Assembly: GCF_001677475.2 (NCBI RefSeq) | Contig: NZ_CP015229.1 | DNA length: 64,000 nucleotides | Strand: one strand, 5' to 3' | Source of the DNA: Escherichia coli | GTDB lineage: Bacteria > Pseudomonadota > Gammaproteobacteria > Enterobacterales > Enterobacteriaceae | Shown here: in pieces, positions 22,850 through 52,586 of the stretch | Layout: each line of letters opens with the position of its first letter | Position numbering within the stretch: position 1 is the stretch's first letter | Notes under the pieces: model-generated | What the model saw: the letters and a program-made list of their open reading frames with translations, nothing else | Told to the model about the DNA's origin: nothing | Databases searched by the model: none | Made by a program: the position numbers and the translations under genes

Positions 22850-25144
22850 TCAGAGCGCCTGGGTAAAGGTACGTGAAATAACATCCTGTTGCTGTTCACG
22901 GGTCAGTGCGTTGAAGCGCACGGCGTAGCCAGAGACACGGATTGTCAGGTTAGGATATTTTTCCGGGTGCTCGATGGCATCCAGCAGCATTTCCCGATTC
23001 ATTACGTTGACGTTGAGGTGTTGACCGCCTTCGACATCCGCTTCGTGGTGGAAATACCCATCCAGCAGGCCGACAAGGTTGGTTTTACGTACTGGATCTT
23101 CTTTGCCCAGCGCCGCAGGCACGATCGAGAAGGTGTACGAGATCCCGTCTTTGGCGTAGGTGAACGGCAGTTTGGCCACCGACGTCAGCGAGGCTACCGC
23201 ACCTTTGCGGTCACGACCGTGCATCGGGTTAGCGCCCGGTGCGAACGGTGTACCCGCGCGACGACCGTCTGGCGTGTTACCGGTTTTCTGGCCGTACACC
23301 ACGTTAGAAGTGATAGTCAGAATCGACTGGGTGGGGACGGCGTTGCGATAGGTTGGCAGCGCTTTAATTTTCTTCATAAAGCGTTCAACCAGGTCGCAGG
23401 CAATACTGTCTACGCGCTCGTCGTTGTTGCCGTACTGCGGATATTCGCCGTCGATTTCAAAGTCCACCGCCAGGCCGTTTTCGTCACGGATTGGTTTCAC
23501 GCGGGCATATTTGATAGCGGACAGGGAGTCTGTTGCCACCGACAGGCCCGCGATGCCGCACGCCATCGTGCGATAGACATCACGATCGTGTAGCGCCATC
23601 AGCGAAGCTTCGTAGCTGTACTTGTCGTGCATGTAGTGAATGATATTCAGCGCGCTGATGTACTGCACCGCCAGCCAGTCCATGAAGTGATCGAGACTGT
23701 CCATCACTTTGTCGTAATCCAGCACGTCGTCCATCAGCGGTGCCATTTTCGGACCGACCTGAATCTTCAGCTTCTCATCCACCCCGCCGTTAATTGCGTA
23801 CAGCAGCGTTTTCGCCAGGTTAGCGCGTGCACCAAAGAACTGCATTTGCTTACCAATCACCATTGGGCTGACGCAGCAGGCAATCGCGTAATCGTCGCTG
23901 TTGAAGTCAGTGCGCATCAGATCGTCGTTTTCATACTGCAAGGAAGAGGTGACGATCGACACCTGCGCGGCATATTTTTTGAAGGCAATCGGTAATTCTT
24001 CCGACCAAAGAATGGTCAGGTTAGGTTCCGGTGCAGGCCCCATAGTGTGCAGGGTGTGCAAATAGCGGAAGGAGTTTTTGGTCACCAGCGTACGACCGTC
24101 CAGCCCCATCCCGCCGATCACTTCCGTCGCCCAGATGGGGTCGCCGGAGAACAGCGAATCAAATTCCGGTGTACGCAGGAAGCGTACCATACGGATCTTC
24201 ATGATGAAGTGATCGATCAGTTCCTGTGCCTGCTGCTCATTGAGGACGCCAGCTTTAAAGTCGCGCTCAATGTAGATATCGAGGAACGATGCCGTGCGCC
24301 CCAGCGACATCGCGCCGCCATTTTGCGATTTCACTGCCGCCAGATAAGCGAAGTAGAGCCACTGCACCGCTTCCTGTGCATTCTGCGCCGGGCGAGAGAT
24401 ATCAAAGCCATATTTCGCCGCCATTTCCTGAATCTGCAACAGCGCATGACGATGCTCTGCCAGCTCCTCACGCAGACGGATGGTGGCTTCCAGATCCTCG
24501 CCTTTTTCCAGACGAGACTGGAGATCGGCAAATTGCAGTTCGCGTTCACGTACCAGATAACTGATGCCATACAGCGCTACGCGGCGATAGTCACCGATAA
24601 TGCGCCCACGGCCATAGCCATCTGGTAAACCGGTCAGCACGCCAGATTTACGGCAGCGCAGCATATCCGGTGAGTAAACATCAAATACACCCTGGTTATG
24701 GGTTTTACGCAGATCGGTAAACAGATATTCAAATTCACTGTCCATTTCACGGCCATAGGCGTGGAATGAACTTTTAATCATATTAATGCCACCGAACGGA
24801 TGCAGCGCACGCTTTAATGGCGCATCCGTTTGCAGGCCCACTATTTTTTCCAGCGGCTGGTTAATATATCCCGCATCATGAGCGGTAATGGTGGTAGCAA
24901 TATTAGTATCGAAATCAACCGGCGCGTGGGTTGCGTTTTCGATACGAATGCCTTCCATCACTTTTTCCCACAATTCCGTGGTGGCTGGCGTCGCTTCGGC
25001 GAGAAAAGATTCATCACCTTCATACGGTGTATAGTTATGTTGAATAAAATCGCGGACATTAATTTCGTTTTTCCAGTCCGTACCTTTAAAGCCAAGCCAT
25101 GCGTCGGCGTACAGCTTATCGCTGGTATCAATATCTACCTTCAT
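22850..25144 (-). CDS. tdcE: 2-ketobutyrate/pyruvate formate-lyase TdcE, 764 aa
   Basis: Glycyl-radical enzyme with C-terminal RVSGYAVRF motif; [21 protein letters not shown]... Confidence 0.93.
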
Positions 25145-28852: not shown

Positions 28853-29791
28853 CTAACCAACTTCTATTAATTGCCTTCGTCTACACCCATTATAAGATGA
28901 ATACTCTTTGGCTAATTCCACCAAAACCGATGCTGCTTTTTTAATACGATAATTTTTCGACCATACCGCGGCATATTGTGCCACAGGTAATGTTTCTTCA
29001 ACCGGAATAGTAATAAATTGATTAGAACCAAAAGGTGACGTCATATCACAAGGAATTACAGTTAAGAAATCAGCATTGAGAACAAGATTATAAATTGTCA
29101 CGACTGAGTCGGTTTTAACGATGTTTTCAATACTGATGCCATTTCTTTGTAACGTAGTAAGCAGTTCGCTGTAGTACCCCATATTAGTTTGTGGCAACAC
29201 CCACTGTTCGTTCTTCAACGACTCCAGCGTGGTGGTGCCGGTGCATGTTCGGGACTTACTGGCTACCAGTACAAACTCGGACTCAAACAGCGGCTCAACA
29301 TGTAAATCCTGAAGCTTCATTTCTGCACTTAACGTACCAATCGCAAAATCCAGTCGACCGTCGCGGATTGCCGGTAAGAACGAAGACAGTTGCGCTTCAT
29401 ACATAGAAACCTGCGCTTTCGGGAACACCTCTTTGAACTTGTTGATCATCCCTGACATAAAAGTAAAACCAATCAATGAAGGAAAACCAAATGAAACTTC
29501 CACCACCGCCTCAGAAGACATACCGCTTATCTCATTAACCATATTTTTCATTTCACGGGTAATGGATTCGGAACGGGAGAGTAACAATTGACCGGCATGT
29601 GTTAATGTTACACCGGTATTTTTCCGCACCACTAATTCCACACCAAAATAATCTTCAATATCGTTAATGATTTTACTGACGGCTGGTTGAGTTAACCCTA
29701 ATTCTTTTGCAGCCGAGCCGATAGAGCCACTTCTAATGACTTCCTGAAAGACTACCAGGTGCTGCGTTTTCGGAAGAAGAATAGTGCTCAT
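28853..29791 (-). CDS. tdcA: LysR-family activator TdcA, 312 aa
   Basis: MSTILLPKTQHLVVFQEVIRSGSIGSAAKELGLTQPAVSKIINDIEDYFG. Confidence 0.92.
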   Translation of the reverse strand: MSTILLPKTQHLVVFQEVIRSGSIGSAAKELGLTQPAVSKIINDIEDYFGVELVVRKNTGVTLTHAGQLLLSRSESITREMKNMVNEISGMSSEAVVEVSFGFPSLIGFTFMSGMINKFKEVFPKAQVSMYEAQLSSFLPAIRDGRLDFAIGTLSAEMKLQDLHVEPLFESEFVLVASKSRTCTGTTTLESLKNEQWVLPQTNMGYYSELLTTLQRNGISIENIVKTDSVVTIYNLVLNADFLTVIPCDMTSPFGSNQFITIPVEETLPVAQYAAVWSKNYRIKKAASVLVELAKEYSSYNGCRRRQLIEVG

Positions 29792-30105
29792 AACGACCTA
29801 CGTTAATTACCTCATTGACGGCATGAAGTGTATCAAAATGAAATGAACAGGATATGTGCGACCACTCACAAATTAACTTTCAATACTTTCCAGGGTATCG
29901 TTATTACAATTAAATACCTTTAAATATCAACAAGTTAAAGTATAAAAATCAGCATAAAGCCTGATTTTTGTCAAAAAAAATGACGGGGATAACCATATTT
30001 TATGGCGATAACATCATTCGTTATGTGGTTAATACAAAAAAGGGGCTGAGACCATATTTCAAGCAATTACCGGATAATTACCAGGCAAAATTTGAGTTAA
30101 ATTTA

Positions 30106-39333: not shown

Positions 39334-39669
39334 ATGCCCGCTAATGCTCGCTCTCACGCTGTACTGACCACTGAATCAAAGGTCACGATACGCGGACAAA
39401 CAACTATCCCCGCGCCAGTGCGTGAGGCCTTAAAACTGAAGCCAGGCCAGGACAGCATTCATTACGAAATTCTGCCTGGTGGGCAAGTATTTATGTGCCG
39501 ACTGGGAGATGAACAGGAGGATCATACTATGAATGCATTTTTGCGTTTTCTGGATGCAGATATCCAGAACAACCCGCAAAAAACTCGTCCATTCAACATT
39601 CAACAAGGAAAGAAACTTGTCGCTGGCATGGACGTCAACATTGATGATGAGATTGGCGACGACGAATAA
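39334..39669 (+). CDS. prlF: Type II antitoxin PrlF (SohA), 111 aa
   Basis: MPANARSHAVLTTESKVTIRGQTTIPAPVREALKLKPGQ (AbrB/SpoVT-type DNA-binding N-terminus), acidic C-terminus. Confidence 0.9.
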   Translation: MPANARSHAVLTTESKVTIRGQTTIPAPVREALKLKPGQDSIHYEILPGGQVFMCRLGDEQEDHTMNAFLRFLDADIQNNPQKTRPFNIQQGKKLVAGMDVNIDDEIGDDE

Positions 39670-40133
39670 TGGATTTTCCACAAAGGGTTAATGGTTGGGC
39701 GCTATATGCTCATCCCTGTTTTCAGGAAACCTACGACGCTTTAGTTGCCGAAGTCGAGACATTAAAGGGAAAAGATCCTGAAAATTATCAGAGAAAAGCC
39801 GCCACAAAGTTATTGGCGGTAGTCCATAAAGTGATTGAGGAGCATATCACGGTCAATCCATCATCACCGGCATTCCGTCATGGCAAGTCGTTAGGCTCTG
39901 GGAAAAATAAAGACTGGTCACGGGTAAAATTTGGTGCTGGTCGTTATCGTCTCTTCTTTCGTTATAGTGAAAAAGAGAAAGTCATCATTCTGGGATGGAT
40001 GAACGATGAAAACACTCTGCGCACCTACGGTAAAAAAACAGATGCCTATACCGTATTCAGCAAAATGTTAAAAAGAGGACATCCTCCTGCCGACTGGGAA
40101 ACCCTCACCCGAGAGACAGAAGAAACCCATTGA
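39669..40133 (+). CDS. yhaV: Type II toxin YhaV (ribonuclease), 154 aa
   Basis: MDFPQRVNGWALYAHPCFQETYDALVAEVE...; start overlaps the prlF stop (ATGA). Confidence 0.9.
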   Translation: MDFPQRVNGWALYAHPCFQETYDALVAEVETLKGKDPENYQRKAATKLLAVVHKVIEEHITVNPSSPAFRHGKSLGSGKNKDWSRVKFGAGRYRLFFRYSEKEKVIILGWMNDENTLRTYGKKTDAYTVFSKMLKRGHPPADWETLTRETEETH

Positions 40134-40187: not shown

Positions 40188-40997
40188 TCACTCCCCGACC
40201 AGAATCACTTCAACCCCAGCCTTTCGCAGGCCTTCCAGACTATCCGCAGGAATGCCTTCATCAACAATGATCATGTCGATACGTTGAGTATCAATGATCT
40301 TATGTAAACTGGAACGATTGAACTTACTGGAATCGGTGACCACGATGATCCGTTCCGCAACTTCGCACATCCGACGGTTTAAACGGGCTTCATCTTCATT
40401 ATGCGTGCTGACACCGCGCTCCAGATCAATCGCATCTACGCCAAGAAACAGCATATCGAAGTGGTAATTTTGCAGCGATTGTTCAGCCTGATCGCCGTAA
40501 AAAGATTGCGACTGACGGCGCAAATGCCCGCCGGTCATCAGCAGCTCAACGCCTTCCGCTTCCAGCAACGCATTAGCCACGTTCATACCGTTGGTCATCG
40601 CAATTACGTCAGTGTGCTTGCGCATCAGACGAGCAATCTCAAAAGTGGTGGTCCCGGAATCGAGGATCACCCGATGACCTGGCTGAATCAACTCAACGGC
40701 AGCTTTCGCAACGCTGCGTTTCATCGCGGTGTTCAGCGCGCTTTTATCTTCCACTGATGGCTCGACTGACGGCGTCGTGCTATCGCAGATCAACGCGCCG
40801 CCATAGGCACGCACAGCGATCCCCTGCTTTTCCAGAAACGCCAGATCGTTGCGGATCGTCACAGTAGATACGCCATACAATGCCGACAGATCGTTAACCT
40901 GCACACTCCCTTGCTGTCGCAGACGCTGAATGATCTGTTCTCGTCGCTCGCTGGTGCCTGTCATTCGCTTCTCACCTGAAGCGTCGGTATTACTCAT
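40188..40997 (-). CDS. agaR: DeoR-family repressor AgaR, 269 aa
   Basis: [52 protein letters not shown]. Confidence 0.92.
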
Positions 40998-41016
40998 AGT
41001 AAGTCCTTTCGTAAAA

Positions 41017-41214
41017 CTTTCGTTTCATTTCGTTTTGCCTATTAACGCCTTTCTATTAAGCAAATGCAAGCCCACCTTACCCATTGGCGCAAGCTACTCT
41101 CGTTTCAGTGGCTTTCATTATGTTTCTTTTGTGAATCAGATCAGAAAACCATTATCTTTCGTTTTATTTTTATCTCACCATGACGCAGTATCAATTGAAA
41201 CAAAACGAAAGATC
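41017..41214. promoter_or_regulatory. Cluster of AgaR-operator-like motifs (TTTCGTTT repeats) in the agaR/kbaZ divergent region
   Basis: ctttcgtttcatttcgttttgcc (41017..41039), ctttcgttttatttttatc (41156..41174), inverted ttgaaacaaaacgaaagatc (41195..41214); fits the published AgaR site pattern as recalled. Confidence 0.55.
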
Positions 41215-41245
41215 AATATCGCAGTAATCTGAACTGGAGAGGAAA

Positions 41246-42526
41246 GTGAAACATCTGACAGAAATGGTGAGACAGCACAAAGAGGGTAAAACAAATGGGA
41301 TTTATGCCGTTTGTTCCGCACATCCGCTGGTGCTGGAAGCTGCAATCCGCTACGCCAGTGCAAACCAAACGCCGTTACTGATTGAAGCAACCTCCAATCA
41401 GGTGGACCAGTTCGGCGGTTATACCGGAATGACGCCCGCCGATTTTCGCGGCTTTGTTTGTCAGCTCGCCGACTCGTTGAATTTCCCACAGGATGCGTTG
41501 ATTCTGGGTGGCGACCATCTGGGTCCAAACCGCTGGCAAAATCTGCCTGCCGCTCAGGCAATGGCCAATGCCGATGATTTGATTAAAAGCTACGTGGCGG
41601 CAGGATTCAAAAAAATCCACCTTGATTGCAGCATGTCCTGTCAGGACGATCCAATTCCCTTAACTGATGACATCGTGGCTGAACGCGCCGCCCGTCTGGC
41701 GAAAGTGGCGGAAGAAACCTGTCGCGAACACTTTGGCGAAGCCGATCTGGAGTATGTCATTGGTACCGAAGTGCCGGTACCTGGCGGCGCGCATGAAACC
41801 TTAAGCGAGCTGGCGGTCACCACGCCGGATGCCGCCCGCGCCACGCTGGAAGCCCATCGTCACGCCTTTGAAAAGCAAGGTTTGAATGCCATCTGGCCAC
41901 GCATCATTGCCCTGGTGGTGCAACCCGGCGTCGAATTCGATCACACCAACGTTATTGATTATCAGCCCGCCAAAGCGAGCGCCTTAAGCCAGATGGTCGA
42001 AAACTACGAAACGCTGATTTTCGAAGCGCACTCTACCGATTATCAAACGCCGCAATCGCTGCGCCAGCTGGTGATTGACCACTTTGCCATTCTGAAAGTT
42101 GGCCCGGCGCTGACCTTCGCCCTGCGTGAAGCTCTGTTCTCTCTGGCAGCGATTGAAGAAGAACTGGTGCCAGCAAAAGCCTGTTCTGGTCTGCGTCAGG
42201 TGCTGGAAAACGTGATGCTCGACCGCCCGGAATACTGGCAAAGCCACTACCACGGTGACGGCAACGCGCGTCGTCTGGCGCGTGGTTATAGCTACTCGGA
42301 TCGCGTGCGCTATTACTGGCCGGACAGCCAGATTGATGACGCTTTCGCTCATCTGGTTCGTAATCTGGCGGATTCACCAATTCCGCTACCGCTCATCAGC
42401 CAGTATTTGCCGCTGCAATACGTGAAAGTTCGCTCCGGCGAGCTGCAGCCAACACCACGGGAACTCATTATCAACCATATTCAGGACATCCTGGCGCAGT
42501 ACCACACAGCCTGTGAAGGCCAATAA
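41246..42526 (+). CDS. kbaZ: Tagatose-bisphosphate aldolase subunit KbaZ (AgaZ), 426 aa, GTG start
   Basis: [61 protein letters not shown]. Confidence 0.92.
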
Positions 42527-42548
42527 GCAAAATAAAGAGGAACACGCT

Positions 42549-43022
42549 ATGCCAAATATTGTTTTAAGCCGGATTGATGAGCGTTTGATTCACGGTCAGG
42601 TCGGCGTTCAGTGGGTCGGATTTGCGGGGGCAAATCTGGTGCTGGTAGCCAACGATGAGGTTGCCGAAGATCCGGTACAACAAAACCTGATGGAAATGGT
42701 ACTGGCAGAAGGGATCGCCGTACGTTTCTGGACGCTGCAAAAAGTTATCGACAACATTCATCGCGCCGCCGATCGACAGAAAATCCTGCTGGTTTGTAAA
42801 ACACCTGCCGATTTCCTGACGCTGGTGAAAGGTGGCGTTCCGGTGAATCGCATTAACGTTGGCAATATGCACTACGCCAATGGCAAGCAACAAATCGCCA
42901 AAACGGTTTCTGTGGATGCGGGTGATATCGCAGCATTTAACGACCTGAAAGCCGCTGGGGTGGAATGCTTCGTTCAGGGCGTCCCGACAGAGCCTGCTGT
43001 GGACCTCTTTAAATTACTTTGA
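42549..43022 (+). CDS. agaV: N-acetylgalactosamine PTS IIB component AgaV, 157 aa
   Basis: ORF 42513..43022; start at MPNIVLSRIDERLIHGQVGVQW (mannose-family IIB). Confidence 0.9.
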   Translation: MPNIVLSRIDERLIHGQVGVQWVGFAGANLVLVANDEVAEDPVQQNLMEMVLAEGIAVRFWTLQKVIDNIHRAADRQKILLVCKTPADFLTLVKGGVPVNRINVGNMHYANGKQQIAKTVSVDAGDIAAFNDLKAAGVECFVQGVPTEPAVDLFKLL

Positions 43023-43032
43023 GGGATTCATC

Positions 43033-43812
43033 ATGGAAATCAGTCTGTTGCAGGCATTCGCGTTGGGCATTATCGCCTTTATCGCTGGCCTGGATATGTT
43101 TAACGGCCTAACCCATATGCACCGCCCGGTGGTCCTCGGCCCGTTGGTCGGGCTGGTACTTGGCGATCTGCATACCGGTATTTTAACCGGCGGTACGCTG
43201 GAACTGGTGTGGATGGGGCTGGCCCCGCTGGCAGGCGCACAGCCGCCTAACGTGATTATCGGTACTATCGTCGGCACGGCGTTTGCCATTACTACCGGCG
43301 TGAAACCCGATGTCGCGGTCGGTGTCGCCGTACCTTTCGCTGTCGCAGTACAGATGGGGATTACCTTCCTGTTCTCGGTGATGTCTGGCGTAATGTCCCG
43401 CTGCGACCGGATGGCGGAGAACGCCGATACACGCGGCATTGAACGCGTGAACTATCTGGCACTGCTGGCACTCGGCACTTTCTATTTTCTCTGCGCTTTC
43501 CTGCCTATCTACTTCGGCGCAGAACATGCCAAAACCATCATTGATGTCCTACCGCAACGATTAATCGACGGCCTCGGCGTCGCGGGCGGCATCATGCCAG
43601 CAATCGGTTTTGCCGTACTGCTGAAAATCATGATGAAAAACGTCTACATCCCCTACTTCATCCTGGGCTTTGTTGCCGCAGCCTGGCTCAAGTTACCGGT
43701 GCTGGCTATTGCTGCCGCCGCGCTGGCGATGGCGCTGATCGACCTGCTGCGTAAATCTCCTGAACCGACTCAACCTGCGGCACAGAAAGAGGAATTTGAA
43801 GATGGCATCTAA
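43033..43812 (+). CDS. agaW: N-acetylgalactosamine PTS IIC component AgaW, full length 259 aa
   Basis: MEISLLQAFALGIIAFIAGLDMFNG...; intact here, truncated in K-12 as recalled. Confidence 0.88.
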   Translation: MEISLLQAFALGIIAFIAGLDMFNGLTHMHRPVVLGPLVGLVLGDLHTGILTGGTLELVWMGLAPLAGAQPPNVIIGTIVGTAFAITTGVKPDVAVGVAVPFAVAVQMGITFLFSVMSGVMSRCDRMAENADTRGIERVNYLALLALGTFYFLCAFLPIYFGAEHAKTIIDVLPQRLIDGLGVAGGIMPAIGFAVLLKIMMKNVYIPYFILGFVAAAWLKLPVLAIAAAALAMALIDLLRKSPEPTQPAAQKEEFEDGI

Positions 43813-44680
43813 TCAAACCACCCTGCCGAACGTCAGTGAAAACGAAGAAACACTGCTGACAGGCGTCAATGAAAACGTGTATGAAGATCAGAGCATTGGC
43901 GCAGAGCTGACGAAAAAAGATATCAACCGCGTCGCCTGGCGTTCCATGCTGTTACAAGCGTCTTTTAACTACGAGCGTATGCAGGCTTCCGGCTGGTTGT
44001 ACGGTCTGCTGCCTGCTCTGAAAAAGATCCACACTAATAAACGCGACCTGGCGCGCGCCATGAAGGGGCATATGGGTTTCTTCAATACCCATCCGTTTCT
44101 GGTGACGTTTGTTATCGGCATTATCCTTGCGATGGAGCGTTCTAAGCAGGACGTTAACAGTATTCAGAGCACCAAAATTGCCGTCGGTGCGCCGCTCGGC
44201 GGGATTGGCGATGCGATGTTCTGGCTAACGCTACTGCCGATTTGTGGCGGGATAGGCGCAAGCCTCGCGCTACAAGGCTCTATTCTTGGCGCAGTCGTCT
44301 TTATTGTGCTGTTCAACGTGGTACACCTGGGGCTGCGTTTTGGTCTGGCGCATTATGCTTACCGCATGGGCGTGGCGGCGATTCCACTCATTAAAGCGAA
44401 TACCAAAAAAGTCGGCCATGCTGCGTCAATCGTTGGGATGACGGTAATCGGCGCGCTGGTGGCAACCTATGTTCGTTTAAGCACCACGCTGGAAATCACC
44501 GCTGGCGACGCAGTGGTTAAGTTACAGGCTGATGTTATCGACAAACTGATGCCTGCCTTCTTACCGCTGGTCTACACCCTGACCATGTTCTGGCTGGTAC
44601 GCCGCGGCTGGAGTCCGCTGCGCCTGATTGCAGTTACCGTGGTACTCGGCATCGTCGGTAAATTCTGTCATTTCCTTTAA
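43796..44680 (+). CDS. agaE: N-acetylgalactosamine PTS IID component AgaE, 294 aa
   Basis: Mannose-family IID profile; MKMASNQTTLPNVSENEETLLTGVNENVYEDQSIGAELTKKDINRVAWRS. Confidence 0.85.
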   Translation: MKMASNQTTLPNVSENEETLLTGVNENVYEDQSIGAELTKKDINRVAWRSMLLQASFNYERMQASGWLYGLLPALKKIHTNKRDLARAMKGHMGFFNTHPFLVTFVIGIILAMERSKQDVNSIQSTKIAVGAPLGGIGDAMFWLTLLPICGGIGASLALQGSILGAVVFIVLFNVVHLGLRFGLAHYAYRMGVAAIPLIKANTKKVGHAASIVGMTVIGALVATYVRLSTTLEITAGDAVVKLQADVIDKLMPAFLPLVYTLTMFWLVRRGWSPLRLIAVTVVLGIVGKFCHFL

Positions 44681-44697
44681 ATACAATGAGGTATTAG

Positions 44698-45132
44698 ATG
44701 TTAAGTATTATTTTGACAGGGCATGGCGGATTTGCCAGCGGCATGGAAAAAGCAATGAAGCAAATCCTCGGCGAGCAATCGCAGTTTATCGCCATCGATT
44801 TTCCGGAAACCTCAAGCACCGCGCTGCTTACATCGCAGCTTGAAGAGGCCATCGCCCAACTGGATTGTGAAGACGGCATTGTTTTTCTGACGGATTTGCT
44901 GGGCGGCACGCCGTTTCGCGTAGCTTCAACGCTGGCGATGCAAAAACCGGGCTGTGAAGTGATCACCGGCACCAATTTGCAACTGCTACTGGAGATGGTG
45001 CTGGAGCGCGAAGGGTTAAGCGGTGAAGAGTTCCGTGTGCAGGCGCTTGAGTGTGGACACCGTGGGCTGACCAGTCTGGTAGATGAGTTAGGCCGCTGCC
45101 ATGAAGAATGTCCGGTCGAGGAAGGAATATGA
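44698..45132 (+). CDS. agaF: N-acetylgalactosamine PTS IIA component AgaF, 144 aa
   Basis: MLSIILTGHGGFASGMEKAMKQILGEQ (mannose-family IIA). Confidence 0.85.
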   Translation: MLSIILTGHGGFASGMEKAMKQILGEQSQFIAIDFPETSSTALLTSQLEEAIAQLDCEDGIVFLTDLLGGTPFRVASTLAMQKPGCEVITGTNLQLLLEMVLEREGLSGEEFRVQALECGHRGLTSLVDELGRCHEECPVEEGI

Positions 45133-46262
45133 CACCCGTTTTGCGCGCCAGAAGGCTGCTGACTGAAGAGGGATGGCTCGATGACCATCAGTTGCGTATT
45201 GCTGACGGTGTAATCGCAGCAATCGAACCGATTCCAGTGGGCGTGACTGAACGCGATGCGGAACTGCTCTGCCCCGCTTACATCGACACCCATGTACACG
45301 GTGGTGCGGGCGTTGATGTAATGGATGACGCGCCGGATGTGCTCGACAAGCTGGCAATGCACAAAGCACGCGAAGGTGTCGGCAGTTGGTTACCGACCAC
45401 CGTAACCGCGCCGCTTAATACCATTCATGCGGCGCTGGAACGTATTGCTCAACGTTGCCAACGCGGCGGACCTGGTGCGCAAGTGCTGGGGAGTTATCTC
45501 GAAGGACCGTACTTCACGCCGCAGAATAAAGGTGCGCATCCGCCGGAGCTGTTCCGCGAGCTGGAAATTGCCGAGCTGGATCAATTGATTGCCGTTTCTC
45601 AGCACACCTTGCGCGTGGTGGCGCTGGCACCGGAAAAAGAAGGGGCATTGCAGGCCATCCGCCATCTTAAACAGCAAAACGTACGGGTGATGCTGGGGCA
45701 TAGCGCGGCGACCTGGCAACAAACCCGTGCCGCGTTTGACGCTGGTGCCGACGGCCTGGTGCATTGCTATAACGGGATGACAGGTTTACATCACCGCGAA
45801 CCGGGAATGGTTGGCGCGGGATTAACGGACAAGCGCGCCTGGCTGGAACTGATAGCCGATGGTCATCATGTGCATCCGGCGGCGATGTCGCTGTGTTGTT
45901 GCTGTGCGAAAGAGAGAATCGTGCTCATCACCGACGCGATGCAGGCAGCAGGGATGCCGGATGGTCGCTATACGTTATGTGGTGAAGAAGTGCAGATGCA
46001 CGGTGGCGTTGTCCGTACCGCGTCCGGTGGGCTGGCGGGCAGTACGCTGTCTGTCGATGCGGCAGTGCGCAACATGGTCGAGTTGACGGGCGTAACGCCT
46101 GCGGAAGCCATCCATATGGCGTCGCTGCATCCGGCGCGTATGCTGGGTGTTGATGATGTTCTGGGATCGCTTAAACCGGGCAAACGCGCCAGCGTCGTTG
46201 CGCTGGATAGCGGGCTGCATGTGCAACAAATCTGGATTCAGGGTCAATTAGCTTCGTTTTGA
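45129..46262 (+). CDS. agaA: N-acetylgalactosamine-6-phosphate deacetylase AgaA, 377 aa, full length
   Basis: ORF 45108..46262; start at MTPVLRARRLLTEEGWLDDHQLRIADG; NagA-like metal-binding HVHGG motif. Confidence 0.88.
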   Translation: MTPVLRARRLLTEEGWLDDHQLRIADGVIAAIEPIPVGVTERDAELLCPAYIDTHVHGGAGVDVMDDAPDVLDKLAMHKAREGVGSWLPTTVTAPLNTIHAALERIAQRCQRGGPGAQVLGSYLEGPYFTPQNKGAHPPELFRELEIAELDQLIAVSQHTLRVVALAPEKEGALQAIRHLKQQNVRVMLGHSAATWQQTRAAFDAGADGLVHCYNGMTGLHHREPGMVGAGLTDKRAWLELIADGHHVHPAAMSLCCCCAKERIVLITDAMQAAGMPDGRYTLCGEEVQMHGGVVRTASGGLAGSTLSVDAAVRNMVELTGVTPAEAIHMASLHPARMLGVDDVLGSLKPGKRASVVALDSGLHVQQIWIQGQLASF

Positions 46263-46339
46263 TGGTTTGCTCCTTTATTGGGCCTTCACTTCCCCCGTAA
46301 GGCCTTTCTTTTTCTTTCGTTGTGCTCTGTGCAGGGTAT

Positions 46340-46391
46340 CGGATGCGACGCTGACACATCTTCTTTGACCTACGGTACGCCGCATCCGGCA
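46340..46391. repeat. REP-like palindromic unit in the agaA/agaS intergenic region
   Basis: cggatgcgacgctg ... gtacgccgcatccgg inverted repeat. Confidence 0.5.
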
Positions 46392-46460
46392 ATCGGTGAA
46401 CATAGCGACGTCATCACGCAATCCTTTAATCTTCCCTTGTCTTTTCTTTCAACGATCACA

Positions 46461-46558
46461 AATTTCGTTTTATTTCCTTTTCCTCCATTGATCTTTCAGT
46501 TTCTTTTCTATAGATTTTGATCAACGAAATGTATCACCAAGTGAAACGAAACGAAAGG
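46461..46558. promoter_or_regulatory. AgaR-operator-like motifs upstream of agaS
   Basis: aatttcgttttatttccttttcc and inverted gtgaaacgaaacgaaagg. Confidence 0.5.
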
Positions 46559-46611
46559 TAAGCGAAAGCGACAACGCCCGACGTCAAGTTCATCAGACTA
46601 AGGATTGAGTT

Positions 46612-47766
46612 ATGCCAGAAAATTACACCCCTGCTGCTGCCGCAACCGGTACATGGACTGAAGAAGAGATCCGCCATCAGCCTCGCGCATGGATCCGTTC
46701 ACTCACCAACATCGACGCGCTACGTTCCGCGCTCAATAACTTCCTTGAACCGTTACTGCGCAAAGAGAATCTGCGGGTAATCCTGACCGGAGCCGGAACC
46801 TCGGCATTTATCGGTGACATCATCGCGCCGTGGCTCGCCAGCCATACCGGTAAAAACTTCAGCGCCGTACCGACCACCGATCTGGTCACCAATCCGATGG
46901 ACTACCTGAATCCAGCTCATCCACTGCTGTTGATCTCCTTCGGTCGATCCGGCAACAGCCCGGAAAGCGTCGCCGCCGTGGAACTGGCAAATCAATTTGT
47001 ACCCGAGTGCTATCACCTGCCGATCACCTGCAACGAAGCGGGCGCTCTTTACCAAAACGCGATCAACAGCGACAACGCGTTTGCCCTACTGATGCCCGCA
47101 GAAACGCACGATCGCGGCTTTGCGATGACCAGCAGCATTACCACCATGATGGCCAGCTGCCTCGCGGTTTTCGCACCTGAAACGATCAACAGCCAGAGCT
47201 TCCGCGACGTGGCGGATCGTTGCCAGGCGATCCTAACCTCACTGGGCGATTTCAGCGAAGGTGTGTTTGGTTACGCACCGTGGAAACGGATCGTTTATCT
47301 CGGCAGCGGTGGCTTACAGGGCGCAGCACGCGAGTCGGCGCTGAAAGTACTGGAACTGACGGCGGGTAAACTGGCGGCCTTTTATGATTCCCCGACCGGA
47401 TTCCGTCATGGACCAAAATCGCTGGTCGATAACGAAACGCTGGTGGTGGTATTTGTCTCCAGCCACCCTTACACCCGTCAGTATGATCTTGATCTGCTGG
47501 CTGAACTTCGCCGCGATAACCAGGCGATGCGCGTAATCGCTATCGCCGCGGAAAGCAACGACGTTATTACCGCCGGTCCACATATCATCCTGCCGCCGTC
47601 CCGTCACTTTATCGACGTTGAGCAGGCATTTTGCTTCCTGATGTACGCCCAGACGTTTGCACTGATGCAATCGCTGCACATGGGCAATACGCCGGATACC
47701 CCATCAGCCAGCGGCACCGTTAACCGCGTGGTGCAAGGCGTAATCATTCATCCGTGGCAGGCATAA
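46612..47766 (+). CDS. agaS: Galactosamine-6-phosphate deaminase/isomerase AgaS (SIS domains), 384 aa
   Basis: MPENYTPAAAATGTWTEEEIRHQPRAWIRSL... Confidence 0.92.
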   Translation: MPENYTPAAAATGTWTEEEIRHQPRAWIRSLTNIDALRSALNNFLEPLLRKENLRVILTGAGTSAFIGDIIAPWLASHTGKNFSAVPTTDLVTNPMDYLNPAHPLLLISFGRSGNSPESVAAVELANQFVPECYHLPITCNEAGALYQNAINSDNAFALLMPAETHDRGFAMTSSITTMMASCLAVFAPETINSQSFRDVADRCQAILTSLGDFSEGVFGYAPWKRIVYLGSGGLQGAARESALKVLELTAGKLAAFYDSPTGFRHGPKSLVDNETLVVVFVSSHPYTRQYDLDLLAELRRDNQAMRVIAIAAESNDVITAGPHIILPPSRHFIDVEQAFCFLMYAQTFALMQSLHMGNTPDTPSASGTVNRVVQGVIIHPWQA

Positions 47767-48639
<873 letters not shown>

Positions 48640-48805
48640 TCATTAGTTTTTTATGATTTATCCCAATGTACTTCCCGATTAATATCGGGGAGTGCCTTAA
48701 TGGAAAAGGAGATGACTAAACCTTAATAAATACATCAGTACAATATCGCAACAATAATATATTTAAAAAAATTATATTATTCAACTTTATGGTGAGGATT
48801 ACACA

Positions 48806-49282
48806 ATGAGCAGTCCAAATATTCTCTTAACCCGTATTGATAACCGTCTGGTTCATGGCCAGGTTGGCGTGACCTGGACATCCACCATCGGTGCAAATCT
48901 GCTGGTAGTCGTGGATGATGTTGTCGCTAACGATGATATTCAACAGAAATTAATGGGTATTACCGCGGAAACCTACGGCTTTGGCATTCGTTTCTTTACT
49001 ATCGAAAAAACCATTAACGTCATCGGCAAAGCTGCACCACACCAGAAGATCTTCCTGATTTGCCGTACGCCACAAACGGTACGTAAATTGGTAGAAGGTG
49101 GCATTGACCTGAAAGATGTCAACGTCGGCAATATGCATTTCTCGGAAGGGAAAAAGCAAATCAGCAGTAAAGTTTATGTCGATGACCAGGATCTCACGGA
49201 CTTACGTTTTATTAAACAACGTGGTGTGAATGTTTTCATTCAGGACGTCCCTGGCGATCAAAAAGAACAAATCCCTGACTAA
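48806..49282 (+). CDS. agaB: Galactosamine PTS IIB component AgaB, 158 aa
   Basis: MSSPNILLTRIDNRLVHGQVGVTW. Confidence 0.9.
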   Translation: MSSPNILLTRIDNRLVHGQVGVTWTSTIGANLLVVVDDVVANDDIQQKLMGITAETYGFGIRFFTIEKTINVIGKAAPHQKIFLICRTPQTVRKLVEGGIDLKDVNVGNMHFSEGKKQISSKVYVDDQDLTDLRFIKQRGVNVFIQDVPGDQKEQIPD

Positions 49283-49320
49283 ATCTAAAATCACCTTAAT
49301 ATTAGTTTGAGGTAATAAAA

Positions 49321-50124
49321 ATGCATGAAATAACCCTACTTCAGGGATTATCCCTGGCGGCGTTAGTTTTCGTTCTGGGGATTGATTTTTGGCTGGAAGC
49401 CTTATTTTTATTCCGCCCGATAATCGTTTGTACCCTAACTGGCGCTATTCTCGGTGATATTCAGACTGGCTTAATTACCGGTGGTCTGACAGAGTTGGCT
49501 TTCGCCGGATTAACCCCTGCAGGTGGTGTTCAGCCGCCCAACCCGATTATGGCGGGTCTGATGACCACCGTCATTGCATGGTCTACGGGCGTTGATGCCA
49601 AAACAGCAATTGGTCTTGGCCTGCCGTTTAGTTTGTTAATGCAGTACGTCATTCTGTTCTTCTATTCCGCTTTCTCATTATTTATGACCAAAGCCGATAA
49701 ATGCGCGAAAGAGGCGGATACGGCAGCGTTTTCCCGGCTTAACTGGACAACGATGCTCATCGTCGCTTCAGCGTATGCGGTGATTGCTTTCCTCTGTACT
49801 TACCTGGCACAAGGGGCGATGCAGGCGCTGGTGAAAGCGATGCCCGCCTGGTTGACCCACGGCTTTGAAGTGGCTGGCGGTATTCTGCCTGCCGTTGGTT
49901 TTGGCTTGCTGCTGCGCGTAATGTTCAAAGCGCAATATATCCCTTACCTGATCGCCGGTTTCCTGTTTGTTTGCTACATCCAGGTCAGCAACCTGTTGCC
50001 GGTTGCCGTACTGGGTGCAGGCTTTGCGGTGTATGAGTTTTTCAATGCGAAATCCCGGCAGCAAGCGCAACCGCAGCCCGTTGCCAGTAAAAATGAAGAA
50101 GAGGACTACAGCAATGGGATCTGA
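49321..50124 (+). CDS. agaC: Galactosamine PTS IIC component AgaC, 267 aa
   Basis: MHEITLLQGLSLAALVFVLGIDFWLEALFLFRPII... Confidence 0.9.
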   Translation: MHEITLLQGLSLAALVFVLGIDFWLEALFLFRPIIVCTLTGAILGDIQTGLITGGLTELAFAGLTPAGGVQPPNPIMAGLMTTVIAWSTGVDAKTAIGLGLPFSLLMQYVILFFYSAFSLFMTKADKCAKEADTAAFSRLNWTTMLIVASAYAVIAFLCTYLAQGAMQALVKAMPAWLTHGFEVAGGILPAVGFGLLLRVMFKAQYIPYLIAGFLFVCYIQVSNLLPVAVLGAGFAVYEFFNAKSRQQAQPQPVASKNEEEDYSNGI

Positions 50125-50905
50125 AATCAGTAAAAAAGATATCACCCGTCTGGGCTTTCGTTCGTCGCTGCTGCAAGCGAGCTTTAACTACGAAAGGATG
50201 CAGGCGGGCGGTTTTACCTGGGCGATGTTGCCGATCCTGAAAAAGATTTATAAGGATGACAAACCGGGCCTAAGCGCGGCGATGAAAGATAACCTCGAAT
50301 TTATTAATACCCACCCAAATCTCGTCGGATTCCTGATGGGGTTATTAATTTCGATGGAAGAAAAAGGAGAAAACCGCGACACCATTAAAGGCCTCAAAGT
50401 GGCACTGTTTGGCCCAATCGCCGGGATTGGCGATGCGATTTTCTGGTTTACTTTGTTGCCGATTATGGCGGGAATTTGCTCATCATTTGCCAGCCAGGGA
50501 AACCTGCTGGGGCCGATTCTATTTTTCGCCGTTTACCTGCTTATCTTTTTCCTGCGCGTCGGCTGGACCCACGTCGGTTATTCAGTCGGCGTGAAGGCGA
50601 TCGATAAAGTGCGAGAGAACTCGCAGATGATTGCCCGTTCGGCAACCATCCTCGGGATCACGGTAATCGGCGGGCTGATCGCTTCGTATGTGCATATTAA
50701 CGTGGTGACATCGTTTGCCATCGACAGTACCCACAGCGTCGCGCTGCAGCAGGATTTCTTCGATAAAGTCTTCCCGAACATTTTACCGATGGCCTACACC
50801 CTGCTGATGTATTACTTCCTGCGGGTGAAAAAAGCGCATCCGGTGCTGTTAATCGGCGTGACGTTTGTGCTCTCTATTGTTTGTTCCGCATTCGGCATTT
50901 TGTAA
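50114..50905 (+). CDS. agaD: Galactosamine PTS IID component AgaD, 263 aa
   Basis: ORF 49967..50905; start at MGSEISKKDITRLGFRSSLLQASFNYERMQ (ATG 50114, overlaps the agaC 3' end). Confidence 0.9.
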   Translation: MGSEISKKDITRLGFRSSLLQASFNYERMQAGGFTWAMLPILKKIYKDDKPGLSAAMKDNLEFINTHPNLVGFLMGLLISMEEKGENRDTIKGLKVALFGPIAGIGDAIFWFTLLPIMAGICSSFASQGNLLGPILFFAVYLLIFFLRVGWTHVGYSVGVKAIDKVRENSQMIARSATILGITVIGGLIASYVHINVVTSFAIDSTHSVALQQDFFDKVFPNILPMAYTLLMYYFLRVKKAHPVLLIGVTFVLSIVCSAFGIL

Positions 50906-51673
50906 ATGGAACGAGGCACTGCTTCTGGCGGTGCCTCTTTACTTAAGGAATTTCATCCTGTGCAAACCCTTCAGCAAGTTGAAAACTATACGGCGTTAAG
51001 TGAACGTGCCAGCGAATATTTATTGGCCGTGATCCGTAGCAAACCGGATGCCGTGATTTGCCTGGCGACCGGAGCCACGCCATTACTGACGTATCATTAT
51101 CTGGTAGAAAAAATCCACCAGCAGCAGGTTGATGTCAGCCAACTAACCTTCGTCAAGCTCGACGAATGGGTGGATCTGCCATTAACTATGCCTGGCACCT
51201 GCGAAACTTTCCTGCAACAGCATATCGTGCAGCCGCTGGGGCTACGTGAAGACCAGCTCATCAGCTTTCGCTCCGAAGAGATAAATGAGACAGAGTGCGA
51301 ACGGGTAACGAACCTGATTGCGCGCAAAGGCGGTCTGGATTTATGCGTTCTCGGATTGGGGAAAAACGGTCATCTTGGGCTGAACGAACCGGGAGAAAAC
51401 CTGCAACCGACCTGCCATATCAGTCAACTTGATGCCAGAACACAGCAACATGAGATGTTAAAAACCGCGGGCCGTCCCGTGACTCGTGGGATCACCTTAG
51501 GCCTGAAGGATATTCTCAATGCCCGCGAAGTTTTGTTACTGGTGACTGGCGAAGGAAAGCAGGATGCGACAGAACGTTTTCTCACGGCTAAAGTCTCCAC
51601 CGCTATCCCGGCTTCGTTTTTATGGCTGCATAACTATTTCACATGCATGATTGATGAGATGTGTCGTCGTTAA
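50906..51673 (+). CDS. agaI: Putative galactosamine-6-phosphate deaminase/isomerase AgaI (NagB-like), 255 aa
   Basis: ATG directly follows the agaD stop; MERGTASGGASLLKEFHPVQTLQQVENYTALSERASEYLLAV. Confidence 0.88.
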   Translation: MERGTASGGASLLKEFHPVQTLQQVENYTALSERASEYLLAVIRSKPDAVICLATGATPLLTYHYLVEKIHQQQVDVSQLTFVKLDEWVDLPLTMPGTCETFLQQHIVQPLGLREDQLISFRSEEINETECERVTNLIARKGGLDLCVLGLGKNGHLGLNEPGENLQPTCHISQLDARTQQHEMLKTAGRPVTRGITLGLKDILNAREVLLLVTGEGKQDATERFLTAKVSTAIPASFLWLHNYFTCMIDEMCRR

Positions 51674-51722: not shown

Positions 51723-52586
51723 TCACTCTCCCTGCTGCTCCAGTGCATACTTATACAGCGCATTTTTCTTCACGCCGTGAATTTCTGCGGCCAGCGCCGC
51801 CGCTTTTTTCAGCGGCAGTTCTGCCTGTAGCAGCGCCAGCGTGCGCAGGGCATCGGCGGGTAAGTCTTCTTCCTGTGCTTTATGGCCTTCGACAATCAGT
51901 ACCATTTCGCCTTTGCGACGGTTTTCATCTTCTTTGACCCACGCCAGCAGCTCGCCAACGGGCGCGCCGTGAATGGTTTCCCAGGTTTTGGTCAGCTCAC
52001 GCGCCAGAACGACGTAGCGGGATTCGCCTAATACCGCAACGATATCTTCCAGGCTATCTAACAGACGGTGGGTAGATTCATAAAAAATCAGCGTGCGCGG
52101 CTCCGCTTCAATGGCTTTTAGCGCATCACGGCGGCCTTTTGATTTGGCAGGTAAAAAGCCTTCATAACAAAAACGATCGGATGGTAAACCCGCGGCGCTT
52201 AACGCAGTGATAGCAGCACACGGCCCGGGTAGCGGCACCACGAGAATCCCCGCTTCACGGCAGGTACGCACCAGATGGTAGCCAGGATCGTTAATTAGCG
52301 GCGTTCCGGCATCGGAAACCAGCGCAATGTTTTGCCCCTCTTGCAGCTTCGCCAGCAGCGTTTCGGCTTTTTGTTGTTCGTTATGGTCGTGCAGCGCAAA
52401 CAACCGAGCATTAATCCCAAAATGTTGCAGCAATAAACCGGTGTGACGCGTATCCTCGGCGGCAATCAGATCAACGGCCTGTAATACCTCCAACGCACGC
52501 TGGGTGATATCCGCCAGATTGCCGATTGGCGTCGGTACAATGTAAAGCTGGCCCTGAGAATTATCCGCCGATTGGTGTTGTTTCAT
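51723..52586 (-). CDS. rsmI: 16S rRNA C1402 2'-O-methyltransferase RsmI, 287 aa
   Basis: [48 protein letters not shown]. Confidence 0.92.

Follow-up and report, generated by a model that had tools for sequence, protein, structure and literature searches.

The repeated T-rich motifs beside agaR, kbaZ and agaS in the stretch of Escherichia coli DNA analysed here (64,000 nt, hereafter the window) are very probably operators for the repressor AgaR at the three promoters PR, PZ and PS of the GalNAc/galactosamine (aga/gam) cluster. As such they are already known elements, almost unchanged from those of E. coli K-12. We make this assignment on five grounds: the sequence hardly differs from K-12 DNA reported to be bound by AgaR, a published AgaR site matches positions 41017-41035, the 24-nt consensus attributed to AgaR recurs exactly at two sites, an intact AgaR that is 100% identical to K-12 AgaR (tblastn) is encoded in cis, and conservation of the sites is strong from genus to genus.

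The operator we propose would be a T-rich site of ~24 bp built from TTTCR or TTTYR pentamers around the core TTTCRTTTYRTTT. In 2004, Ray and Larson reportedly derived a 24-nt AgaR consensus, WRMMTTTCRTTTYRTTTYNYTTKK, with this same core; a full-text literature search for the consensus string returned no match.

The initial annotation had assigned the repeats to positions 40998-46611. Both ends of that range do carry motifs, and all high-scoring sites are confined to 41007-41214 (agaR/kbaZ) and 46459-46567 (upstream of agaS), but the rest of the range is the kbaZ-agaVWEFA operon. A simple sigma-70 scan of both spacers did not call PR, PZ or PS; its sole candidates were two on the minus strand of the agaR-kbaZ spacer, with none ahead of agaS. 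Because such a scan misses CRP-dependent promoters, the promoter hexamers listed below are our own reading and are named putative. The features of the two control regions are as follows, with PWM scores and with mismatches counted against the 24-nt consensus.

40188..40997, minus strand: agaR (so annotated in a close E. coli record), encoding a 269-aa repressor of the DeoR family
41007..41037, plus strand: agaR-promoter operator cluster, in which a degenerate TTTCGTAA (41007) precedes the exact 24-nt site AAACTTTCGTTTCATTTCGTTTTG (41014-41037; cores at 41018, 41023 and 41028), 0 mismatches, PWM 27.4
41041..41069, minus strand: putative PR (agaR promoter), -35 TTGCAT at 41069-41064, 17-nt spacer, -10 GTTAAT at 41046-41041
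41109..41132, plus strand: weaker AgaR site TGGCTTTCATTATGTTTCTTTTGT, which runs into the CRP-like site, 2 mismatches, PWM 14.7
41130..41145, plus strand: CRP-like site TGTGAATCAGATCAGA, 1 mismatch to TGTGAN6TCACA
41153..41176, plus strand: AgaR site TATCTTTCGTTTTATTTTTATCTC in the likely kbaZ core promoter (PZ), PWM 25.0
41191..41214, minus strand: AgaR site GATCTTTCGTTTTGTTTCAATTGA in inverted orientation, past PZ and ahead of the kbaZ start codon, PWM 24.8
41246..42526, plus strand: kbaZ, which starts with GTG and heads the kbaZ-agaVWEFA operon, Pfam GatZ_KbaZ-like (1.9e-202), identity also from existing annotation
46280..46318, plus strand: terminator-like hairpin GGGCCTT...AAGGCCT followed by TTTCTTTTTCTTT, directly after the agaA stop, of putative role
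~46330..46410, no strand: REP-like palindromic stretch, the one segment of the spacer whose structure is not that of K-12
46445..46460, plus strand: CRP-like site, a candidate for CRP binding, right half good (TCACA, 46456-46460), left half poor
46459..46482, plus strand: AgaR site CAAATTTCGTTTTATTTCCTTTTC ahead of the core promoter of agaS, 2 mismatches, PWM 22.9
46488..46516, plus strand: putative PS (agaS promoter), -35 TTGATC at 46488-46493, -10 TAGATT at 46511-46516
46537..46567, minus strand: inverted operator cluster, the exact site 46537-46560, TACCTTTCGTTTCGTTTCACTTGG, with cores at 46549 and 46544, 0 mismatches, PWM 27.8 (the top match of the whole window), plus TTTCGCTT at 46560-46567
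46612..47766, plus strand: agaS, first gene of agaS-kbaY-agaBCDI, two Pfam SIS domains, identity also from annotation

The putative PS hexamers match at 8 of 12 positions, which is below the threshold of the sigma-70 scan, and a weak AgaR-like TTTCAGTTTCTTTT lies inside this promoter (PWM 11.3 at 46490-46513).

Comparison with E. coli K-12

The K-12 aga regulon, with PR, PZ (kbaZ) and PS (agaS), matches the window in its genes, its spacers and the positions of its sites. The agaR-kbaZ spacer is 99% identical to its K-12 counterpart, with 5 of 281 aligned positions different and none of them in a core, and the promoter-proximal agaS region (170 bp) is ~95% identical. Both sites that match the 24-nt consensus exactly are present in the window strain and in K-12 at equivalent positions, and the K-12 copies of 41109-41132 and 46459-46482 each have 1 mismatch to it, as against 2 in either window copy. 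Substitutions relative to K-12 fall at degenerate flank positions (41111, 41195, 41214, 46478, 46548 and 46560). Window and K-12 positions correspond one to one, except for a 1-bp indel in the agaS spacer.

Upstream of PS, the window has a complete operon (agaW, agaE, agaF, agaA), whereas K-12 has a 2.3-kb deletion that corresponds to ~43409-45703 of the window. The initial annotation was right that K-12 agaA is truncated, but the truncation is at the 5' end, and the deletion does not reach the 3' end of agaA or the spacer beyond it. Given these limits of the deletion, K-12 retains 559 bp at the 3' end of agaA together with all of the agaA-agaS spacer, so that the suggestion of a promoter context for agaS that may differ from K-12 is not supported. 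The alignment of the agaS upstream region with K-12, proposed at the outset as a check, points the same way: the post-agaA hairpin, all operators, the putative -35 and -10 elements and the RBS align, and only the REP-like stretch is rearranged. The latter corresponds to the low-identity columns 110-200 of the spacer alignment and lies >40 bp upstream of the first agaS operator. We keep 'terminator-like' and 'REP-like' as descriptive labels only; the hairpin, which is identical in K-12, has an MFE of -10.9 kcal/mol, not better than that of shuffled sequences, and the folding energy of the REP-like stretch is likewise no better than that of shuffles.

We consider it unlikely, though not negligibly so, that the motifs are AgaR operators while the agaS control region works differently from that of K-12. 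The intact agaA upstream and the rearranged REP-like stretch could be taken to favor such a difference, as could a putative -35 of TTGATC where K-12 has TTGAAC, a downstream agaS operator that reads TTTCGTTTCGTTT in the window and TTTCGTTTCATTT in K-12, and the different induction levels of EDL933 and E. coli C (PMC3668189). However, the K-12 deletion ends well before the agaA stop, the hairpin, operators, putative -10 and RBS are collinear with K-12 at equal spacing, and the operator change, A/G, falls on the R of the consensus, a degenerate position. If agaS control does differ from K-12, the effect would be quantitative rather than a change of context. Among E. coli genomes, the agaA-agaS spacer is 80-97% identical, compared with 95-99% for the 7.8-kb region.

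The strain carries the complete 13-gene aga/gam cluster, very probably under standard AgaR/CRP-type control, and promoter and operator data from K-12 should therefore be directly transferable to it. The value of this result lies mainly in annotation, with little beyond.

AgaR and its known operators

The AgaR protein encoded beside the first array contains the Pfam domains HTH_DeoR (1.9e-21) and DeoRC (3.3e-55). In the passage of PMC3668189 that cites Ray & Larson 2004, AgaR is stated to bind the three promoters of agaR, kbaZ and agaS and to repress transcription from them. The PkbaZ site has also served as the AgaR operator of a synthetic promoter, on which it confers AgaR-dependent repression; barring one extra T in the text, its sequence (Table S3 of PMC8667592) is that of window positions 41017-41035. 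Together with the two exact consensus matches, this PkbaZ match (PMC8667592) bears out the early impression that the motif fits the AgaR binding pattern.

It is very improbable that the motifs are bound mainly by another protein, such as a different sugar regulator, a nucleoid protein that recognizes T-tracts, or CRP, with AgaR acting elsewhere or indirectly. CRP-like elements do overlap two of the sites, and nucleoid proteins commonly target T-tract DNA, but the literature statement of AgaR binding to all three promoters speaks against this view, as does the function of one of the sequences as an AgaR operator in isolation. Moreover, strong sites lie essentially only beside agaR and agaS in 80 related loci, which fits a local, dedicated regulator.

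CRP may nonetheless act at these promoters alongside AgaR. Other genera retain the left half (TGTGA/TGCGA) and the spacing of the CRP-like site at 41130-41145, and likewise GATCACA directly upstream of the agaS operator. The strict CRP pattern is found in only 6 of 75 agaR-kbaZ spacers, the right half being variable, and a conserved full CRP site across the spacers is not claimed. Ray and Larson (2004) reportedly described CRP dependence of the aga promoters, and it is partly on this ground that we regard 41130-41145 as a putative CRP site.

Enrichment and conservation of the sites

The whole 64 kb window has 8 exact copies of TTTCGTTT, both strands included, where 3.5 matches are expected. 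As the initial annotation had described, several copies in both orientations are present in both control regions: seven of the eight (41018+, 41028+, 41157+, 41203-, 46463+, 46544- and 46549-) are confined to the 248-bp agaR-kbaZ spacer and the final 150 bp of the agaA-agaS spacer. The exact TTTCGTTT(T/C)ATTT form proposed there is found at 41018, 41157 and 46463, and minus-strand copies are close variants, namely TTTCGTTTTGTTT at 41198-41210 and TTTCGTTTCGTTT at 46544-46556. With up to 1 mismatch, the 13-mer TTTCRTTTYRTTT has 10 matches in the window against 1.15 expected, 8 of them in the two control regions, and 6 matches to this core are exact. A scan with the 24-nt consensus gave two sites with 0 mismatches and two with 2, where 0.18 would be expected at up to 3 mismatches, and the six best independent PWM matches in the window are all inside the two control regions.

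An enrichment over background had been predicted for a proper motif scan, and it is clearly present. The null consisted of dinucleotide-preserving shuffles of each spacer itself, which control for its own AT-rich composition. Four copies of TTTCGTTT are observed in the agaR-kbaZ spacer (shuffle mean 0.06), a count reached in 0 of 5000 shuffles, and three in the agaA-agaS spacer (shuffle mean 0.10), reached in 1 of 5000. The observed 13-mer counts are reached in none of 5000 shuffles for either spacer.

Conservation was assessed in 80 related loci fetched around agaR, from ~75 other Enterobacterales species (1.2 Mb). TTTCRTTT occurs at 18/kb in the control regions (75 agaR-kbaZ spacers and 59 agaS upstream regions) and at 0.2/kb elsewhere in the 1.2 Mb, and every one of the 75 agaR-kbaZ spacers has at least 2 copies. 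Outside Escherichia, TTTCGTTT ranks first among the 8-mers of both sets of control regions, is found in 123 of 125 regions, and per base is 95-fold commoner there than across the remainder of the loci. At a threshold of at least 20 bits, 484 of 486 PWM matches in the 80 loci lie in the two control regions, although this specificity test is partly circular for the training loci of the matrix, which was built from non-Escherichia sites only. No further AgaR-type clusters, for example before agaB, were found in the 80 loci, with 2 stray matches in 1.2 Mb. The AgaR regulon that Leyn and colleagues reportedly predicted in 2012 by comparative genomics for Enterobacterales/Proteobacteria is reported to be alike in its conserved T-rich motif adjoining agaR-kbaZ and agaS.

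Positions are fixed to +/-1 bp across loci. Relative to the kbaZ start, conserved cores begin at -229, -219, -133 and -89 in direct orientation and at -36 in inverted orientation, with the -133 site (41109-41132) in place in 55 of 75 loci, the -89 site (41153-41176) in 66 of 75 and the -36 site (41191-41214) in 68 of 75. Before agaS, the conserved layout is a direct/inverted pair ~93 bp apart. At least 95% conservation of columns is seen in 41014-41037 (74 distinct spacers), 41153-41176 and 46537-46560; 41109-41132, 46459-46482, the putative PS hexamers and the stretch 41043-41071, which overlaps the putative PR, also form conserved blocks. By contrast, the linker of ~40 bp that separates the agaR-side from the kbaZ-side operators, at ~41072-41108, is unconserved.

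That the repeats merely reflect composition, as chance TTTCGTTT-like words in T-rich or AT-rich intergenic DNA that bind nothing specific, is effectively refuted: both spacers are indeed AT-rich (GC 0.37 for agaR-kbaZ, 0.44 for agaA-agaS), one-mismatch octamer variants are also frequent outside the two regions (75 of 92 in the window), and an AT-rich region outside the cluster scores up to 19.4 by PWM, but the shuffles reach the observed counts in at most 1 of 5000 cases and ~70 species share both the sequence and the placement of the sites, with a pairwise identity of 83% for operator 24-mers versus 35% for the linker.

This AT-rich region, 29472-29852, was considered as a third cluster and rejected as a chance occurrence. 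It lies in tdcA as annotated in the close E. coli record, has TTTCATTT instead of CG cores, and gives scores of <=19.4, within the null range. The eighth TTTCGTTT, at 25063, is isolated and falls within tdcE as annotated in the same kind of record.

A possible mode of repression

The layout of the sites suggests how AgaR may act. PR and PZ share the divergent agaR-kbaZ spacer and PS lies ahead of agaS; in each control region, several sites would lie on or beside the core promoter and the first stretch to be transcribed. From the reading of PR given above, agaR transcription would start near 41034, inside the operator, and this operator set could thus mediate autorepression. PZ would be bracketed by two direct sites and one inverted site, overlapping the CRP-like site, and PS by one direct and one inverted site. 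Without inducer, oligomeric AgaR would occupy the operators, perhaps cooperatively, and block transcription; growth on GalNAc or GalN, the presumed source of the inducer, would release it.

The distances between operators are nearly invariant. The agaR-side operator and the -89 operator are 139-142 bp apart in 62 of 64 loci despite the unconserved linker between them, the -89 site and the inverted site are 53 bp apart in 49 of 51 loci, and the direct (+) and inverted sites before agaS are 92-94 bp apart in 42 of 44 loci. Such spacing tentatively points to one AgaR oligomer bridging sites in a phased DNA loop, an idea we hold to be somewhat less probable than its absence. If it were true, the divergent PR and PZ would be repressed as a single unit. 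AgaR is not known to form DNA loops. The conserved arrangement of operators might inform an experiment on looping, or help in designing GalNAc-responsive expression parts.

Other DeoR-family regulators of E. coli, namely GlpR, DeoR, GatR and FucR, resemble AgaR in their HTH_DeoR and DeoRC architecture, in having several operators per promoter roughly whole helical turns apart, and in placing some operators downstream of the start site and alongside CRP-like elements. DeoR and GlpR operators are palindromic sites, whereas the AgaR half-site is a TTTCR pentamer repeat. Streptococcus AgaR1 and AgaR2 share the name and the pathway, GalNAc/GalN catabolism, but belong to the GntR family, use different palindromic operators and are not homologous to the AgaR described here (PMC4694137, PMC5018945).

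Motif arrays in the aga control regions

The complete E. coli aga/gam cluster lies at 40188-51673 of the window, as placed by open reading frames (ORFs), Pfam domains and the annotation of a collinear close E. coli record. Its 7.8-kb core shares 95-99% identity with 5,325 E. coli records and ~98% with K-12, and the window thus represents an ordinary E. coli that, like E. coli C, carries the whole cluster. AgaR is intact, with HTH_DeoR and DeoRC domains (Pfam), and the protein is 100% identical to that of K-12.

Features of the cluster (genes placed by ORF, Pfam and annotation of the close record)
40188-40997, - strand: agaR
41246-42526: kbaZ, GTG start
after kbaZ: agaV, agaW, agaE, agaF and agaA, the last ending at 46262
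46263-46611: agaA-agaS spacer, 349 bp
46612-47766: agaS, followed by kbaY and agaBCDI
41018+, 41028+, 41157+, 41203-: exact TTTCGTTT copies, agaR-kbaZ spacer
46463+, 46544-, 46549-: exact TTTCGTTT copies, end of agaA-agaS spacer

The initial annotation described repeats of this motif, in both orientations, in both control regions, and the description holds: seven of the eight exact TTTCGTTT copies in 64 kb (3.5 expected) fall there, on both strands. The longer core TTTCRTTTYRTTT gives 10 matches with at most one mismatch against 1.15 expected, eight of them in the two control regions. Since both spacers are AT-rich, each was shuffled on its own (5000 shuffles each, dinucleotide content preserved). 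The observed octamer counts were attained in 0/5000 shuffles of the agaR-kbaZ spacer and 1/5000 of the agaA-agaS spacer, and the 13-mer counts in 0/5000 for either, so that the motif is enriched over background.

Several lines of comparison support its further proposal that the TTTCGTTT arrays are AgaR operators, namely the intact, identical AgaR, near-identity to K-12, and matches to a 24-nt consensus and to an experimentally used site. The 24-nt consensus that Ray and Larson reportedly derived in 2004, WRMMTTTCRTTTYRTTTYNYTTKK, occurs without mismatch at 41014-41037(+) and 46537-46560(-) and with two mismatches at 41109-41132(+) and 46459-46482(+); at up to three mismatches, 0.18 matches are expected in the window. 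Window positions 41017-41035 equal the PkbaZ sequence CTTTCGTTTCATTT(T)CGTTT, which served as the AgaR operator in a synthetic-promoter study that measured AgaR-dependent repression (PMC8667592). PMC3668189, citing Ray & Larson 2004, reports AgaR binding at the agaR, kbaZ and agaS promoters and states that agaR deletion makes agaA and agaS constitutive. AgaR operator arrays are thus an already known regulatory feature, here in a new strain, and the finding is of low interest overall.

The agaS promoter context in K-12

The 2.3 kb deleted in K-12 correspond to window ~43409-45703, beginning within agaW and ending within agaA, in agreement with PMC3668189. The initial annotation was therefore right that agaA is truncated in K-12, but its suggestion that the agaS promoter context might differ finds no support: K-12 retains the hairpin that resembles a terminator, the final 559 bp of agaA and the entire spacer with all operators, and the context is therefore the same. 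The alignment of the agaS upstream region that it had called for reveals only minor differences (93% identity across the spacer, ~95% over the last 170 bp), clustered in a rearranged REP-like stretch at ~46330-46410. In the agaR-kbaZ spacer, 5/281 aligned positions differ, none inside motif cores, and K-12 carries the same AgaR-type sites in the same places. The putative agaS -35 element is TTGATC in the window and TTGAAC in K-12. A one-base change at a degenerate R position of the downstream agaS operator (TTTCGTTTCGTTT in the window, TTTCGTTTCATTT in K-12) explains why three exact TTTCGTTT copies precede agaS here and two in K-12.

The agaA-agaS spacer (46263-46611) shows 80-97% identity across complete E. 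coli genomes, compared with 95-99% for the surrounding 7.8 kb, and this variability sits in the REP-like palindromic stretch (46330-46410). Compared with K-12, this stretch lacks a ~27-nt segment and has gained a ~30-nt one, with flanking GCAATC repeats. The hairpin (GGGCCTT...AAGGCCT) and its T-rich tail, at 46280-46318 directly 3' of the agaA stop, are identical in K-12. The tail, CTTTCTTTTTCTTTCGTT, is weakly AgaR-site-like (PWM score 10.5 in the window, by the AgaR-site matrix built here; three consensus mismatches in K-12).

Conservation and spacing of the operators across genera

A single AgaR scan of species-representative genomes yielded 80 loci from Escherichia, Citrobacter, Klebsiella, Raoultella, Enterobacter, Kluyvera, Salmonella (arizonae/diarizonae), Yersinia, Serratia, Buttiauxella, Cedecea and others. 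Once agaR, kbaZ and agaS had been placed in each locus, 75 agaR-kbaZ spacers and 59 regions upstream of agaS could be compared. Both sets hold 18 copies of TTTCRTTT per kb, against 0.2 per kb in the other 1.2 Mb. In a motif-free count of control regions outside Escherichia, the commonest 8-mer is TTTCGTTT (363 copies, 123/125 regions), with a per-base frequency ~95-fold above the rest of the loci. When the PWM was trained on non-Escherichia sites only and run over the window, all six top independent matches (22.9-27.8 bits) fell in the two control regions; across the 80 loci, 484 of 486 matches of at least 20 bits did so, in a test that is partly circular. Conserved blocks among 74 distinct spacers coincide exactly with operator positions, and further blocks cover a CRP-like TGTGA element, putative promoter hexamers and ribosome-binding sites; conservation is absent over the ~40 bp that separate the agaR-side from the kbaZ-side elements. 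Pairwise identity is 83% for operator 24-mers and 35% for the linker.

Core starts in the window (relative to the kbaZ start codon)
41018/41028: -229/-219, direct
41113: -133, direct, weak
41157: -89, direct
41210: -36, inverted

Each of these positions holds to +/-1 bp in most species, and the agaR-kbaZ spacer measures 248-251 bp in 67/75 loci even though its central ~40 bp are unconserved. The agaR-side core lies 139-142 bp from the -89 core in 62/64 loci, the -89 site 53 bp from the inverted site in 49/51, and, before agaS, the direct site 92-94 bp from the inverted one in 42/44. Spacings close to whole helical turns, together with a linker of fixed length, would fit cooperative AgaR binding or looping. 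That operator spacing is so strictly conserved between genera is the only mildly new element, and it makes a looping model testable.

A third PWM cluster at 29472-29852, comprising several moderate TTTCATTT-type matches (at most 19.4 bits) where the close E. coli record has tdcA coding sequence, probably reflects chance, because it scores within the range of random 64-kb sequence and lacks the CG core. Some genera (loci L015, L016, L025, L054, L076 and others) have agaS only ~2-3 kb from kbaZ (vs ~5.3 kb) or no detected agaA, which indicates cluster variants without some agaVWEFA genes; AgaR-type sites still lie upstream of agaS in them.

A probable mode of repression

A plausible agaR promoter (PR) on the - strand combines TTGCAT (41069-41064), a 17-nt spacer and GTTAAT (41046-41041), and would start inside the operator at 41014-41037, so that AgaR may repress its own gene. 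At the kbaZ promoter (PZ), the weak operator 41109-41132 overlaps a CRP-like site with one mismatch (41130-41145); the strong operator 41153-41176 would cover the likely core promoter, and the inverted operator 41191-41214 would lie in the early transcribed region. At the agaS promoter (PS), operator 46459-46482 adjoins the right half of a CRP-like site (46456-46460), a weak AgaR-like repeat lies within a plausible -35/-10 pair (46488-46493, 46511-46516), and the inverted operator cluster 46537-46567 probably lies downstream of the start. An AgaR oligomer on these operators may exclude RNA polymerase and CRP, and a GalNAc/GalN-derived inducer, whose identity is described as unclear (PMC4694137), would release it.

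At the edges of the cluster, the prlF-yhaV toxin-antitoxin pair (39334-40133) lies directly downstream of agaR and convergent with it, as in K-12. At the other end, rsmI (51723-52586, - strand) comes directly after agaI, and the yraHIJK fimbrial genes that follow agaI in K-12 are absent. The K-12 alignment ends at 51630, 43 bp ahead of the agaI stop, and therefore the agaI C-terminus is unlike that of K-12 (255 aa in the window, 251 aa in K-12).
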